Assembly (NCBI GenBank): GCA_963703285.1
Contig: OY969807.1
Location: 1,536,001-1,600,000 of the forward strand
Reading direction: 5' to 3'
Length of the DNA: 64,000 nucleotides
Origin: an uncultured Nitrososphaerota archaeon
GTDB lineage: Archaea > Thermoproteota > Nitrososphaeria > Nitrososphaerales > Gagatemarchaeaceae
The position numbers and the translations under genes were made by a program. Each line of letters begins with the position of its first letter. The first letter of the stretch is position 1. The notes below the pieces were generated by a model, which worked only from the letters and a program-made list of their open reading frames with translations, did no database searches and was not told where the DNA came from. This document shows positions 1,032 through 56,169 of the stretch, piece after piece.

Positions 1032-1336
1032 ATCACGGTCAGGCTGCTTGAATTCGTGATGCTAGGGTTCATCGCGCCTCCGCTGAGGCATCTCATCCAC
1101 ATGTTGGGCTCGGGTGATTCGCCAGCCACCTTGGGCGCTCTCCTGCGGAGGCGTTCGAACGAGCTCGAATCAGACGGAAGAGCCAAAAGCCCACCCCTCT
1201 TCTCAGGCGAGACGACGATGACGATGGCAGACGGGGAAATCCTCGGGATTCAACGGGGTCGTTGAAAGACGGACCCCGTCTCCTGCCGCCGGTCCGACCC
1301 ACTCCCGGGGCGTAATCCCCGAGGTCGACAGCCGGA

Positions 1337-2125
1337 TTGAAGTTCCTGCCCTTAGAGCACGGACTCATCGTCTCGTGGTTCGTCATGATAATCGGGGCTG
1401 TGCTCCTGTCCACCGAGTTCAGCTCCTACGGAATCGGTTTGATAATCGTACTCCTGCCCACGCTGTTTGTCTACGACAGGGTCATCGTAGGTCTGAGACT
1501 CTGGTCGCTGGGGAAGGTAGACTTCCGCGGCTTGCTGGTCGAGAAGGTGGGGGCTCTGGCCCTCGTCATCCTCTCGGTAGCGCTCGCCTACATGGCCGCG
1601 GGTCTGCTGCTGAGCTTGATGCCTTGGATTCCCGTGTTGGTGACGGCCGTCATCCTGGTCCTGGTGGGAATCGCCTTCCGCTATCTGAAGGAGAGGCACA
1701 TGGTCACGAGGGCCGTCTCGACCCTGATGGTGAACTCGCAATTCCTTCTAATCAACTCAGCCCTCGGCGACACAGTCACGAGTTTCGAGATCATCGCCTT
1801 CACCATGATGTCGCTGGTCGCCCTGCTTCTCGTCGCGAACGTCGTCCAGCTGGTAGAGACCGAAAGGATCCGGGTGGGCCCTTCCAGGCGAGGTTCAATC
1901 GGGGACGACCCACCCTTCTTCGTGGCGGGAGTGGCCATCGCAGCGGTAATCTCCCTGGCTGTCTCAGAGTTCTACCTATCCTTCGTCATCCTGCTGGTGG
2001 CAATCGAGGGTGCATGCCGTTATGGGCTGCGGGGGAGGACGATGAGGACCAGGGGGATTCTCTCGTCGTGCGTCGAGGCGCTAGCGCTGCTGCTCCTCCT
2101 CCTGCACCTCCATGGAATCCTGTAG
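1337..2125 (+). CDS. Multi-pass membrane protein, YwiC-like
   Basis: N-terminal PLEHG..W motif and many hydrophobic segments. Confidence 0.6.
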   Translation: MKFLPLEHGLIVSWFVMIIGAVLLSTEFSSYGIGLIIVLLPTLFVYDRVIVGLRLWSLGKVDFRGLLVEKVGALALVILSVALAYMAAGLLLSLMPWIPVLVTAVILVLVGIAFRYLKERHMVTRAVSTLMVNSQFLLINSALGDTVTSFEIIAFTMMSLVALLLVANVVQLVETERIRVGPSRRGSIGDDPPFFVAGVAIAAVISLAVSEFYLSFVILLVAIEGACRYGLRGRTMRTRGILSSCVEALALLLLLLHLHGIL

Positions 2126-2213
2126 GTCTTTCGCGCCGGAAATGGCCAACGCTCTCGGGAAGTTCAGAAAACAGGCGATACTAGGAATCCCCTGCGGCTC
2201 CGCCGAGGCGTCT

Positions 2214-2846
2214 TCAGACGATGCGGCTCTTGGACAACCTCTTGACCACCAGCGCTGCACCTTCCTTCGTGATAATTTTCCAAGACCGAACGTAACTCTC
2301 TTTCATATGCGGGTTGGCCTTCGAGTACTCCCACCATCTCTCGTGTCTGATGTACCTCTCCGCGCCACTACCGAAGACGGCTCTGAGCGTTTCGACCAGC
2401 AGGGCCTGGACTGGGATGTGGATGATCGTGGTGTGGTCCTCGGTTTTGTATGAGGCCCCCATAGATATCCAGTATCCCGCGAGCATTTCCTCGTTGTCGT
2501 CCAACAGAGTATGGATGAGTTCGTGTATCAGAGATGTGACCTGGCCCTCGATGTTCTCCCCCTTCTCTCCTATCCAGAGGGTGAGTGGATCGGAAAATGG
2601 GTAGCTGACAGTCGAGACCACATAGGCCCGAATCTCCCTTCTCTTACAGCGGAGCCCCGAGAAACTCGCCATGGCGCGCAGGATTTTCTCCGAATGCACG
2701 TCCCAAGCCTTCTGGATCTCTGCCGCCTGCTCCTTGCCTCTGCGGCTAGCCTCGGGGGTGAGCTCGTGACCATGATACCTCATGAGTACGCGGTCGTATA
2801 TCGAAGAGTAGGTGACAATAACCCTAGGGATTCCGCCCACAGGCAC
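2214..2846 (-). CDS. Hypothetical protein with HExxH zincin-like motif
   Basis: LIHELIH motif. Confidence 0.6.
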   Translation of the reverse strand: MPVGGIPRVIVTYSSIYDRVLMRYHGHELTPEASRRGKEQAAEIQKAWDVHSEKILRAMASFSGLRCKRREIRAYVVSTVSYPFSDPLTLWIGEKGENIEGQVTSLIHELIHTLLDDNEEMLAGYWISMGASYKTEDHTTIIHIPVQALLVETLRAVFGSGAERYIRHERWWEYSKANPHMKESYVRSWKIITKEGAALVVKRLSKSRIV

Positions 2847-2875
2847 TTGGTGGCGTACCTCTTCTTAACGATAGT

Positions 2876-3487
2876 TCACTCGGCGTTCATTGTGCCATCG
2901 GTCTGGGGAGCCTCTTCGTCGTCCTCCTGAGGCTCCTGATTGAGCCACCGCTTGGCCTTCCCTATCGGACCCAAACCCTGGGGCGTAAAGTTCCCGAAGC
3001 CTATCGCCGTGAAGCCTAGCGCCACGAAGATGGCGGAGTCTTGAATCACACCGGCAACTCCCGTAAGAGTTGAAAGGGACGACGTGAAATCCACGGTCTG
3101 TGGTGGATGGCCAGGAGGGAAGACGACGTTCTCGGCAATCACCAGGAGCGGGGTGTTCACGAGGGCCAGTACAAACCCCCACAAGAACAGCGTGAGCGCT
3201 ATCCAGGGGGCGGCCCTGGAGGGGTCAAGGCCATATCTCCGCGCCACGTAGAAGAAGAGTCCAAACGGTATGGCGAATTCGAAGATGATCGCTTGCCAGG
3301 GATATACGGCAAAGTACACCCCGTACACGAAGAATCGTTCGAAGATGGACCCGATGATGCCAATCAACTCAAACGCTTGAAGGAACCCATACAGGACGTA
3401 GCCGAGCAGGACCGCGAAGCCCGCAAGCGCAAGCATCGCCACCGCTCGCCCGGGGGACGGCTGACTCTCTGTGGTCAAGGTCTTCAC
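2876..3487 (-). CDS. Membrane protein
   Basis: About 4 TM segments; GTG at 3487 overlaps the stop of the upstream gene. Confidence 0.6.
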   Translation of the reverse strand: MKTLTTESQPSPGRAVAMLALAGFAVLLGYVLYGFLQAFELIGIIGSIFERFFVYGVYFAVYPWQAIIFEFAIPFGLFFYVARRYGLDPSRAAPWIALTLFLWGFVLALVNTPLLVIAENVVFPPGHPPQTVDFTSSLSTLTGVAGVIQDSAIFVALGFTAIGFGNFTPQGLGPIGKAKRWLNQEPQEDDEEAPQTDGTMNAE

Positions 3488-54613: not shown

Positions 54614-54616
54614 CAT

Positions 54617-55747
54617 TTGGCCGTAGTGACGCGCGTAATCAAGTTCAACCGTACTTCCGTACTGTACGTGCCCAAGCGAATCATCCCGGAACACGAGAGA
54701 TCCGACGTGCTCGAGGTGGAGATATGCAGGATTGGGAGCGACGGGGCCCCTGAGGGACGGTCTCACCTGCTCTACTGTCTGCACAATCCGGAGTCCAGGA
54801 GAGCCTTCCTCAGCCTCTTCCAGTTGAGGCCGAAGCCCGGAGAACCCTTCGCGATCCTTGGCGTGCGAAGATACGGTTTGGAAGAGTTCGCCAATGACTA
54901 CAACAAAGTGAGGCCGATGTCCCTTCACAATACCCGTCTTCTCCTCGTGGATGCTCGACTGGTCATGAGGGTCGGGGACGCTGAAGTTACCATCCCGCAT
55001 GAACTGAAGTCCAATAGAGGGCATGTCCTACTGCTCGGCAGATTCGGAGAGCACGGTCGCCAGTTCAAGATAACGAAGTGTCTTGCGGGCTTCAAGGTCT
55101 GTCTAATGCCGAGGCACAGCCCTGTCGCTTCGATGAAGGACGAGTCTGGAGGGATAGTGATACGCTATCGAGACCGCCGCATTCCCGAAGACGGTCACAG
55201 GACGGTAATTGAGATCGAAGGGGCCAAACCACTCATGGATTCGAAGCATCCCATCAGTAGCCCTTCGCTGATGGACGGGATGAGAATCGTTTCCAAGCCA
55301 ATGACATTCGAAGGAGTCTACACCTTGAGGAGTTCTCAAAGGTTGGAGCGGTTCGTCCGGAACAAACTGTCGTCTGCCAGGGGTTTCGCACAGTACTCGC
55401 ACCAAAGGGGTACGATCGCCGAGGGAATCATCAACAGTGTTCTGGCAAGAATTGGGTGCCACGAAGTTGTCGACCATCCTCACGGGAGCGGTTGGGGCGG
55501 TCAGATCTCAGAGAAGAAGGGTCCCGATAGTCTCAGATTCACGATAGTCAATCACGCCCTTGCATATTTCGAATTCAAGTGGTGGTCCAACGCGTTATTG
55601 GCAGTAAGTGATTCTCGAATTCAAGTCCGAGCGTATCGTTGTAGATTCCCGAGCTATGGAGAAACTTTGGTTGGAGCCGCATATGCTGCGGTACTGGACT
55701 GGGAAACAGGAAAGTTGAATGCGCGGCTAATAATCAAGCGAGCATAG
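54617..55747 (+). CDS. Hypothetical protein with possible C-terminal PD-(D/E)XK motif
   Basis: G.IAE ... GPDSL ... YFEFKW. Confidence 0.5.
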   Translation: MAVVTRVIKFNRTSVLYVPKRIIPEHERSDVLEVEICRIGSDGAPEGRSHLLYCLHNPESRRAFLSLFQLRPKPGEPFAILGVRRYGLEEFANDYNKVRPMSLHNTRLLLVDARLVMRVGDAEVTIPHELKSNRGHVLLLGRFGEHGRQFKITKCLAGFKVCLMPRHSPVASMKDESGGIVIRYRDRRIPEDGHRTVIEIEGAKPLMDSKHPISSPSLMDGMRIVSKPMTFEGVYTLRSSQRLERFVRNKLSSARGFAQYSHQRGTIAEGIINSVLARIGCHEVVDHPHGSGWGGQISEKKGPDSLRFTIVNHALAYFEFKWWSNALLAVSDSRIQVRAYRCRFPSYGETLVGAAYAAVLDWETGKLNARLIIKRA

Positions 55748-55801
55748 TAGAAGAGTAGAGAGTCCAATCTTTCTTGGTTAGAGATGCGGAAGAAATGTTG
55801 A

Positions 55802-55850
55802 GCCATGTATAGGGTTCATTGCGCCTCCGCCGGGGCATTTCATCCACACG
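55802..55850 (-). other. Native 3' arm of the 23S rRNA processing stem (BHB: helix GCGC 55821-55824, bulge AAU 55818-55820)
   Basis: Complementary to the ITS segment 60875-60926; together they form a canonical 3-4-3 BHB. Confidence 0.9.
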
Positions 55851-56169
55851 TTGGGCTATAGTAATTGGACGGGCTGAACACGTCGACCTTGCGGTCTTCG
55901 TGCGTACACCCCCAATACTTCAACGGAGTCTTCTACTCCCGCCCTTCTCAGCGTGCCCCTCTAGCCTTGCGGCCGGAAGGGTGTAGCTGATAGAACACTC
56001 TTCTTGGGAGTGGCTTCCTGCTTAGATGCTTTCAGCAGTTATCCACAACAGCTTAGCTGCCCGGCGGTGCCCTTTCGGACAACCGGTACGCCAGAGGCTG
56101 CGCGCCGCTGTTCCTCTCGTACTGAGCAGCGCTTCCCCGCAGTGTTCTTCCGCTTCCATCAGGTAGAGG

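Follow-up and report, generated by a model that had tools for sequence, protein, structure and literature searches.

The stretch of DNA analysed here (64,000 nucleotides (nt), G000:C1:1536001-1600000, referred to as the window) carries a chromosomal gene-cassette array which is seeded at the 3' end of the single 23S ribosomal RNA (rRNA) gene of a Gagatemarchaeaceae-type thaumarchaeon. This array is specific to its lineage and is not an ordinary arrangement. An earlier note on the window had described about 38 same-orientation copies, over about 55 kb, of the sequence that natively follows the 23S gene, and had taken them for the borders in a modular array of cassettes, with the 23S processing site as its anchor. 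Both the count and the anchoring held, as we found 37 to 39 copies between positions 1055 and 55861, all on the plus strand. As for the origin of the array, we regard serial site-specific integration of integrase-less cassettes (as circles) at the 23S end and at the array copies, with integrases acting in trans, as the best explanation, and we hold it with a confidence only slightly above even. Throughout the text, G000 denotes the genome holding the window (a single contig of 2,252,123 base pairs (bp) with 60.6% GC), other G numbers denote comparison genomes, and cassette ranks are counted outward from the 23S gene, rank 1 being the cassette adjoining it.

The repeated site and its native copy

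A search of the window for repeat families gave direct-repeat families of 19 to 31 copies, in one register and one orientation. When the core 19-mer was allowed up to 3 mismatches, 34 matches were obtained in the window, all on the plus strand, with 0.01 expected on the basis of 100 shuffles. A profile of the site, built from 33 copies and run over the 2.25 Mb genome, recovered 35 window copies at E<0.01, again all on the plus strand; addition of one weak copy (E 0.21) and one known by its 23S-like extension gives 37, and two further degenerate copies (7932-7991 and 44012-44046), seen by the repeat-family search only, bring the total to 39. Consecutive copies are separated by 291 to 15397 nt and the intervals carry genes. 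In the whole genome, 37 of the 39 copies at E<0.01 lie at one locus and on one strand. To the left of the window there are copies at -62 and -3116 and weaker ones down to -9313; the array extends about 3-20 kb in this direction, its copies decaying, and measures about 55-75 kb as a whole. Only two copies at E<0.01 are located elsewhere. One of them, at genome position 32197-32240 (+), is solitary and well conserved (27.6 bits) and lies 1.5 Mb from the array. The other, at 1332639 (-), is found about 310 nt from an intron-bearing transfer RNA (tRNA) gene (1332185-1332325) and 4 kb from a 5S rRNA gene (1328507-1328626).

Short conserved intergenic repeats are common and short-read contigs break or branch at the copies found here, which would suit a locally spread or regulatory repeat resembling repetitive extragenic palindromes (REP) or miniature inverted-repeat transposable elements (MITE), or an assembly artefact joining strain variants. 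This possibility is largely refuted and we give it hardly any credit. The copies differ from REP and MITE sequences in being confined to one locus and one strand and in having neither terminal inverted repeats nor a hairpin; the REP/MITE-like scatter that the earlier note would have taken as a refutation was not found. Moreover, they bound units that are common as wholes between species, and the same architecture recurs in six independently assembled contiguous genomes, G000 itself being one unbroken contig.

Assignment of the native copy depends on where the 23S gene ends. At least two group I introns split the gene (57779-58154 and about 56286-57000, the latter matched in its 3' part only), and an open reading frame (ORF) for a LAGLIDADG homing endonuclease lies inside it (58290-58835). 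The Rfam call at gathering threshold ends the 23S gene at 56999, which is 1160 nt short of its true end, because this call truncates the intron-bearing gene. In a second Rfam scan of 55600-56400 the 23S sequence resumes beyond the second group I intron and ends at 55839. Since position 2987 of the large-subunit (LSU) model aligns there, the copy at 55802-55861 consists of the final 23 nt of 23S plus the trailer. The repeat is thus indeed the sequence that natively follows the 23S gene, as the earlier note had it.

By inspection, the native copy pairs with the leader of 23S in a 16-bp helix (55802-55817), followed by a 3-nt trailer-strand bulge at 55818-55820, a 4-bp helix at 55821-55824, a leader-strand bulge and a 10-bp helix (55826-55835). 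A duplex prediction for the spacer (61032-60861) and the trailer (55861-55740) gave -98.3 kcal/mol, a value which comes with no shuffle control. The complementary leader segment (60926-60882) occurs once in the genome, so only the trailer strand has been multiplied. We read this pairing as a putative archaeal bulge-helix-bulge processing site, since its layout matches that motif; cleavage is a prediction. Archaeal rRNA processing stems with bulge-helix-bulge motifs are described in 10.64898/2026.03.23.713588. In six genomes with contiguous assemblies (G000 included; 214 copies), the 17 best-conserved nucleotides of the site run from the last part of helix 1 through the 3-nt bulge and the 4-bp helix into the beginning of helix 2. 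Outside this core, conservation drops to 68-84% at positions +14 to +20 and to 33-68% in the left arm. Some copies continue into a 23S-derived extension, i.e. the last 23-65 nt of 23S; it is present in 15 of the 37 G000 copies (about 40%) and in 70 of 215 copies from the six genomes.

No hairpin or dyad was found in the site: six single-strand DNA folds (three sites, both strands) had z from 0.18 to 1.60, and 102-193 of 200 shuffles folded at least as well as the real sites. As no tRNA gene was detected in the window by a tRNA search either, the statement that the junctions are neither attC sites nor tRNA pieces could be upheld. We also considered the repeat as a shared promoter, ribosome-binding site or start codon, and rejected this idea: start-like triplets occur on the rRNA-sense strand, their frames are mostly short, and few of the 37 copies open an ORF of at least 100 codons.

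Arrays in related genomes, their cassettes and the exchange of cassettes

Public genomes with exact matches to the repeat are nearly all metagenome-assembled genomes (MAGs) of Nitrososphaerota, including Candidatus Gagatemarchaeum stordalenia, with a few chance single matches in bacteria. Of 22 other genomes of the genus, 20 contain the 19-mer when up to 2 mismatches are allowed, and so does one sister genus; it was absent from a third genus of the family and from all 17 genomes representing 17 other families of the order. The five other contiguous assemblies of the genus have one 23S gene each, and in them the array begins within about 40 nt of its 3' end. Together with G000 they have all their copies on one strand (37/37, 59/59, 53/53, 42/42, 14/14 and 10/10, with spans up to 126 kb). 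Secondary arrays away from 23S are present in G021 (contig 3), G014 (contig 4) and G008. The prediction that copies are confined to one strand downstream of 23S thus holds strictly for G000 only and fails for these relatives.

In other genera of the family the picture is more varied. G058 has an array adjoining 23S, with 13 copies in the stretch examined; further downstream on its contig 4 (13994-33944) a block of copies has the opposite orientation, which suggests an inversion within or between arrays. G077 has small clusters of copies. In G041 (complete, 1.5 Mb) a native site is present beside 23S, and no further copy was detected by the profile in the 18 kb downstream, the only other match being a 2-mismatch 19-mer 400 kb off; hence the site can exist unoccupied. 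This downstream region shows no synteny with the distal flank of the G000 array. No copies were found by the profile in G068, of the same family. Outside the family, we asked whether a genome's own 23S trailer recurs in the 20 kb downstream: in 17 genomes from 8 other families there was no recurrence in 16 and one in G060. The only repeats detected in these stretches, in G038, G080 and G060 from three of the families, are tandem coding repeats with periods of 126, 30 and 75 nt, respectively, and are unrelated. Viral contigs gave four exact 17-mer matches, which we ascribe to chance because their flanks are dissimilar in every case.

The cassettes are small. Their median length is 848-1378 bp across the six arrays; for G000 it is 894 bp (range 422-15355 bp), with 27 of 36 cassettes not exceeding 1.5 kb. 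The typical load is one or two genes and the longest ORF fills a median of 66% of the cassette (six genomes), which bears out the claim that there is little spare DNA. In 97 of 145 cassettes of up to 2 kb the longest ORF runs in the direction of rRNA transcription and 23 more have no dominant ORF, as judged by a crude ORF heuristic. Mean cassette GC in G000 is 0.51-0.56 versus 0.606 for the genome. No nucleotide homologue in the other five arrays was found for 138 of 209 cassettes. Pfam agrees with the cargo as it had been listed from the sequence: in G000 there are three MazE/PIN pairs and further PIN proteins, methyltransferases, glyoxalase/VOC and SRPBCC proteins, a RibD_C protein (the supposed dihydrofolate reductase-like one), an exonuclease-like protein, several winged-helix proteins and many ORFs with no Pfam match. 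The largest interval holds an alpha/beta hydrolase, two polysaccharide deacetylases, a serine hydroxymethyltransferase-like protein, two luciferase-like monooxygenases, an AMP-binding (acyl-CoA ligase-type) enzyme and a thiolase; this suggests that whole pathways can ride as one cassette. The 5.5 kb block beside 23S was considered as fixed machinery of the array and rejected: it is itself a cassette, recurring at G021 rank 5 and G009 rank 3, and its hits in Pfam and PADLOC are limited to weak ones, to an ATPase and an exonuclease.

Cassettes recur as discrete units at different ranks and in different genomes, with their boundaries in the core of the site. A BLAST comparison of all 209 cassettes of the six arrays against each other gave 83 pairs of at least 150 bp. 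Several of them extend over the entire cassette. Rank 17 of G000 and rank 12 of G014 are 95.1% identical (812 of 811 nt); the value is 94.3% for G000 rank 28 and G009 rank 2, and 90.5% for G000 rank 21 and G014 rank 33. Rank 31 of G000 has two counterparts, at G014 rank 37 (94.6%) and at G021 rank 45 (80%). Within G014, ranks 18 and 52 are duplicates (93%). Alignable DNA outside the arrays is only 77-78% identical for the same genome pairs, with a maximum of 84-89%, and a core gene beside 16S is 71-73% identical. Identities of 90-95% against such a background indicate that these cassettes were exchanged after the species had split. The expectation that cassette order and content would differ between relatives, with single cassettes common as whole units, was confirmed.

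Shared cassettes placed in different contexts show where the exchange takes place. The left arm of the site follows the left cassette, while the right half, together with any 23S-like extension, follows the right one. In a linkage test with 22 site pairs sharing the left flank only and 51 sharing the right flank only, positions -16 to -4 tracked the left flank (identity 0.45-0.82 versus 0.26-0.52 for unlinked pairs), and positions +13 to +26 tracked the right flank (0.78-1.00 versus 0.29-0.77). The switch is thus located inside the invariant stretch from -3 to +12 (16 nt; 55812-55827 in the window). Such a narrow region fits a defined crossover region, although homologous recombination would also favour the best-conserved stretch. 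In four soil metagenome runs (one study, short contigs) there were loose ends at repeats, some leading into other parts of the array or into unmatched sequence, and no joints; such data show neither recombinants nor their absence, because De Bruijn contigs branch at 31-mers common to the copies.

If new cassettes entered next to 23S and pushed older ones outward, as the earlier note proposed, then the array should be polar, and on this the evidence is mixed. Cassettes shared with other arrays are rarer in the 23S-proximal halves than in the distal ones (25/103 versus 46/106; Fisher p 0.005, which overstates the evidence because the genomes are related and the statistic ignores kinship). GC content in G000 is lower near 23S (rho 0.58), the gradient being significant in G000 and G021 only. 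Site scores drop with distance from 23S in G014 (rho -0.35) and G021 (-0.31), not in the other four genomes. At the far end of the G000 array the sites decay, and similarity to cassettes of other arrays goes on in the DNA to the left of the last clear site. On the other hand, two observations count against insertion exclusively near 23S: rank 1 of G000 is old (80% identical to G021 rank 5 and G009 rank 3), and the recently exchanged cassettes (94-95%) are found at ranks 17-31.

Another possibility is that the repeat matters as RNA. In this scenario its copies are spare 3' halves of the bulge-helix-bulge motif, which could pair with the leader in read-through rRNA transcripts; the splicing endonuclease and a ligase would act on the cassette RNAs, either processing them or linking them to the leader, and cassettes could be born via reverse transcription. 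The best-conserved 17 nt are just what a minimal motif would need, two thirds of the scored ORFs (the 97 of 145 mentioned above) follow rRNA transcription, and the genome has two identical reverse-transcriptase genes. However, movement of cassettes between positions and species is a fact at the DNA level, one third of the cassettes point the opposite way, the leader strand is single in the genome, and the reverse transcriptases lie far from the array. We find this scenario very unlikely. The two RVT_1 genes (genome 1883084-1883773 and 2041636-2042325), with identical scores, are likely two copies of one group II intron; as a candidate enzyme of the array they were rejected, being located about 290 kb and about 450 kb away with no link found. 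A broader idea would combine both roles: the array would be an independently evolved, integron-like archaeal platform on the rRNA operon, where one 17-nt element serves as the DNA attachment site and the RNA half-site, and captured genes are transcribed by read-through from the rRNA promoter, after which the tRNA-splicing endonuclease and a ligase would free them or fuse them to the leader. We consider it improbable in this full form.

Candidate integrases in trans and the probable mode of integration

The mechanism that we favour, serial site-specific integration, may be outlined as follows. The attachment site would comprise the last nucleotides of 23S and the 3' strand of the 23S processing stem, its invariant core of 16-17 nt coinciding with the 3' half of the putative bulge-helix-bulge motif. 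The cassette end that faces 23S carries the left arm of the site, and the distal end carries the right arm, with or without the mimic of the 23S end. Cassettes would be transiently circular, each with one complete site, and conservative site-specific recombination within the core would insert and excise them, most often, though not always, with the native site as partner. Tyrosine integrases would be provided in trans by rarer, integrase-bearing elements using the same site.

Candidates for such integrases were found in relatives. Elsewhere in the genus there are 57 PF00589 matches in 18 of 23 genomes. Ten integrase genes in eight related genomes have the site 0.5-1.9 kb beyond their stop codon, and in all ten cases the integrase holds the place and direction that the 23S gene has relative to the site. 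The sites beside these integrases have the core and the left arm and are devoid of the 23S-like extension. Two of the integrases, on G021 contig 3, head arrays of 6 and 11 copies in inverted orientation. These two arrays (288-346 kb) flank ribonucleotide reductase and permease genes; the G000 counterpart of this region (1339959-1348087) has no array, the solitary site at 1332639 mentioned above lying near it. A search for recombinases co-occurring with the array, as the earlier note had suggested, thus gave site-linked tyrosine integrases in eight relatives and none linked to the array in G000.

Several observations weigh against serial site-specific integration. The sole PF00589 protein of G000 (genome 1627363-1628598) begins 8 nt past a tRNA-Leu gene, more than 12 kb from any site. 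The site-linked integrases, rather than forming one dedicated lineage, fall into at least four families whose mutual similarity is low or nil. Integrase loci of the genus with no site amount to 29 of 30 at +/-1.5 kb and 10 of 16 at +/-10 kb, and the proximity of integrases to sites is given with no chance expectation or permutation test. G009, with 17 copies, has no convincing integrase (best match 16.5 bits; the assembly is 77% complete). The core has no dyad symmetry or hairpin, as judged from folds and inspection, whereas simple core sites of tyrosine recombinases usually have dyad symmetry. Rank does not track divergence cleanly. Finally, no circle or empty junction was seen in public runs, which consist of short contigs only and are uninformative either way. 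As G000 has no site-linked integrase, its array may now be static, or it may be served by an unrecognised enzyme.

The G000 protein just mentioned has SAM-like, catalytic and zinc-ribbon domains and is encoded 36 kb away, beyond the rRNA operon. The preceding gene is tRNA-Leu(CAG), with a tRNA-Thr gene 520 nt upstream. Orthologues with 83-89% identity are present in G001, G014, G015, G021 and G004. This integrase probably marks the end of a tRNA-integrated (tRNA-targeting) element. We rejected it as the enzyme of the array, since it adjoins tRNA-Leu and its G021 and G014 orthologues have no site within 10 kb. Serine recombinases were rejected as well, being present in only 3 of 23 genomes of the genus.

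The main rival explanation is general homologous recombination, in which DNA of relatives brings in a cassette along with its repeat, the 35-85 bp repeats act as homology arms and the process can do without a dedicated recombinase. Short homology can suffice for homologous recombination in archaea, and the sites are direct repeats of high identity. The missing array-linked recombinase in G000 and the lack of any found in G009 agree with such a process, and so does the comparison of G000 rank 17 with G014 rank 12, where the left arm differs as if exchanged left of the core. Nevertheless, the switch is limited to the 16-nt core, despite the additional 26-65 nt common to about 40% of sites, where crossovers might equally have occurred, and homologous recombination explains neither how a copy of the 23S end comes to be attached to new genes nor why several integrase families stand in a fixed geometry beside sites. 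We judge it rather unlikely.

Alternatively, the array could consist of the remains of ordinary integrative elements (proviruses or plasmids) that had inserted at the 23S end, each by means of an integrase of its own, and had later shrunk to a few genes. Tandem integration at the 3' ends of stable RNAs is well known for tRNA genes, as PMC6563490 and PMC8371274 show, and integrase-bearing units using the present site do exist in relatives. However, no PF00589 gene and no remnant of one was seen inside the six primary arrays (about 450 kb), which implies that the cassettes are not decayed autonomous elements; of 116 stretches of 8 kb around sites, only 3 contain an integrase-like gene. The cassettes are also uniformly small (medians of 0.85-1.4 kb), and identical boundaries in different species at 90-95% identity would not result from independent decay. 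Such an origin seems highly improbable to us. Coordinates of the features discussed above are collected in Table 1.

Table 1. Features of the window and site-linked integrases of related genomes (positions refer to the window unless a contig or MAG is named).
Feature	Position	Strand	Remarks
16S rRNA gene	61077-62574	-	Rfam; same operon as 23S
23S rRNA gene	55839-60884	-	Rfam LSU model, last model position 2987 aligns to 55839; only one in genome
5' (leader) strand of 23S processing stem	60882-60926	-	complementary to trailer; single occurrence in genome
Native site	55802-55861	+	best-scoring copy, 37.8 bits; 3' strand of processing stem + last 23 nt of 23S (55839-55861)
Invariant core of site	55812-55828	+	positions -3 to +13; 85-98% conserved, 214 copies, six genomes
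Cassette array, 36 intervals	1055-55861	+	extends left past window, as far as about genome 1517 kb
Cassette 1 with five ORFs, 5.5 kb, adjoining 23S	50390-55747	+	about 80% identical to G021 rank 5 and G009 rank 3
AAA-type ATPase, cassette 1	51342-53318		below Pfam cut-offs
RNase H-fold exonuclease-like protein, cassette 1	53963-54613		weak match
S-adenosylmethionine methyltransferase cassette	49383-50135	-	Methyltransf_25, 74.7 bits
S-adenosylmethionine methyltransferase cassette	38739-39467	-	Methyltransf_11, 56.3 bits
Schlafen AlbA_2 domain protein cassette	37286-38581	-	83.4 bits
RibD_C (dihydrofolate-reductase-like fold) cassette	36315-36920	-	73.5 bits
NAD-dependent epimerase/NmrA-like cassette	34611-35558	-	76 bits
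MazE-type antitoxin + PIN toxin pair	32471-33135	+	whole cassette 95.1% identical to G014 rank 12
MazE-type antitoxin + PIN pair	30908-31646	-	Pfam
HxlR regulator 29156-29488 (-), glyoxalase/VOC 29547-29936 (+), glyoxalase/VOC 30061-30477 (-)	29156-30477	mixed	Pfam
PIN_2 protein	28627-29037	+	cassette 90.5% identical to G014 rank 33
SRPBCC (AHSA1) protein cassette	27261-27749	-	83.2 bits
Largest interval, 15.4 kb metabolic cluster	10120-25482	.	Pfam
MazE-type antitoxin + PIN pair	8803-9442	+	cassette 94.3% identical to G009 rank 2
Amidohydrolase cassette	6920-8275	-	130 bits
Site copy with 23S-like extension	1055-1114	+	profile, 27.0 bits
Site copy with 23S-like extension	4015-4074	+	profile, 23.2 bits
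Site copy	4486-4519	+	profile, 23.4 bits
Site copy	5424-5457	+	profile, 33.4 bits
Site copy	6107-6140	+	profile, 29.2 bits
Site copy	6879-6912	+	profile, 28.4 bits
Degenerate site copy with 23S-like extension	7932-7991	+	repeat family D1, 62% to reference; missed by profile
Site copy	8685-8718	+	profile, 26.1 bits
Site copy, cassette sequence in place of right half	9444-9477	+	profile
Site copy, extension present with 1-nt shift	10086-10119	+	profile, 32.2 bits
Site copy with extension	25483-25542	+	profile, 31.9 bits
Site copy	26295-26328	+	profile, 22.1 bits
Site copy	27222-27255	+	profile, 32.2 bits
Site copy with extension	27742-27801	+	profile, 32.1 bits
Site copy	28279-28312	+	profile, 27.9 bits
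Site copy with extension	29052-29111	+	profile, 26.7 bits
Degenerate site copy with extension	29957-30016	+	4 core mismatches
Site copy with extension	30806-30865	+	profile, 31.3 bits
Site copy with extension	31642-31701	+	profile, 29.4 bits
Site copy, 23S-like extension of about 65 nt	32283-32342	+	profile, 30.6 bits
Site copy	33140-33173	+	profile, 31.0 bits
Weak site copy with extension	33907-33967	+	profile, 12.5 bits, E 0.21
Site copy with extension	34530-34589	+	profile, 33.2 bits
Site copy	35713-35746	+	profile, 21.3 bits
Site copy	36252-36285	+	profile, 32.3 bits
Site copy	37110-37143	+	profile, 29.3 bits
Site copy	38700-38733	+	profile, 31.9 bits
Site copy with extension	39581-39640	+	profile, 33.2 bits
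Site copy, short extension	40857-40890	+	profile, 30.1 bits
Site copy with extension	42189-42248	+	profile, 24.6 bits
Degenerate site copy	44012-44046	+	repeat family; 3 mismatches in 19
Site copy with extension	44299-44357	+	profile, 30.7 bits
Site copy	45025-45058	+	profile, 26.9 bits
Site copy	46712-46745	+	profile, 18.1 bits
Site copy, diverged extension	47681-47714	+	profile, 32.1 bits
Weak site copy	48666-48699	+	profile, 16.7 bits
Site copy with extension	49295-49355	+	profile, 27.5 bits
Site copy, diverged extension	50256-50289	+	profile, 28.5 bits
Site-linked integrases	G008 contig 3, 121 kb (120904-122097) and 1385 kb		
Site-linked integrases	G021 contig 3, 304 kb (304070-305437) and 320 kb (319739-320923)		
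Site-linked integrase	G014 contig 8 at 1191 kb		
Site-linked integrase	G011 contig 7 at 141 kb (140947-142140)		
Site-linked integrase	G020 contig 86		
Site-linked integrase	G015 contig 25		
Site-linked integrase	G010 contig 218		
Site-linked integrase	bog_1369 MAG		

Comparison with known systems

The assertion that no system of this kind had been described agrees with what we found in the literature. Full-text searching (supplements aside) returned no description of such an array, nor of one strand of a processing stem multiplied downstream of a gene. Neither a survey of integrated elements in thaumarchaea (PMC6563490) nor a review on the tyrosine recombinases of archaea (PMC8371274) contains the word 'rRNA' in its main text. 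The main text of the genomics paper on the family (PMC10640624) contains none of the terms 'integron', 'cassette', 'integrase', '23S', 'genomic island' or 'mobile'.

Elements targeting tRNA or transfer-messenger RNA genes, with SSV-type or pNOB8-type integrases, share with the array the use of a stable-RNA 3' end as the target, where the incoming copy keeps the gene intact and a partial copy is displaced; direct repeats after repeated use and integrase genes near one attachment site are common to both as well. The target here, unlike theirs, is an rRNA gene with its processing stem, and there are 10-59 units rather than 2-4, each of about 1 kb and devoid of an integrase. The native copy shares with archaeal rRNA processing stems the predicted leader/trailer pairing with two bulges around a 4-bp helix, and departs from them in that one strand is multiplied tens of times downstream. 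A CRISPR array (clustered regularly interspaced short palindromic repeats) differs as well, given the irregular spacing and the gene-bearing intervals found here.

Xer-dependent modules, i.e. integrative mobile elements exploiting Xer (IMEX) and the pdif modules of Acinetobacter plasmids, have dif-like dyads and rely on the host Xer recombinase. Like the cassettes, they are small recombinase-less modules, often with toxin-antitoxin or single accessory genes, bounded by short sites and served by an enzyme encoded elsewhere. In contrast to them, the site described here has no dyad, and beside its one PF00589 protein, which is linked to a tRNA gene, G000 encodes no tyrosine recombinase that might be XerA.

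Integrons are the textbook bacterial device for stockpiling and exchanging single genes, and to our knowledge only classical IntI/attC integrons have been reported in Archaea. Superintegrons, clusters of attC sites lacking integron integrases (CALINs) and archaeal integrons all resemble the array in being long, one-directional series of small, mostly one-gene cassettes bounded by a recombination site. Unit-wise exchange between genomes, a cargo rich in toxin-antitoxin pairs and small enzymes, and the prevalence of cassettes unique to one genome are shared features too, and with CALINs the G000 array also shares the lack of an adjacent integrase. The differences lie in the parts. The present sites are not attC: they form no imperfect palindrome and fold no better than shuffles, and they are near-identical ends of a host RNA gene, whereas attC sites are conserved in structure and variable in sequence. 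There is no intI beside the G000 array, the anchor is the 23S gene rather than attI, and the orientation bias of ORFs is only 2:1. Archaeal integrons as described by Ghaly et al. (2022, PMC9668308) are IntI/attC elements, and that paper has no mention of 'Nitrososphaer', 'Thaumarchaeo' or 'rRNA'.

If serial integration is the true explanation, an rRNA gene would here be seen for the first time in use for serial attachment, cassette arrays would have arisen convergently by a second route, and the system would be a main source of genome plasticity (50-130 kb, 2-5% of the genome) in an abundant group of uncultured archaea of acid soils. A short, well-defined site with candidate integrases is a resource for archaeal genetics, and the array offers a test case for how cassettes gain recombination sites. 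The logic is that of integrons, and the building parts are others: the 23S rRNA gene end together with the processing stem.

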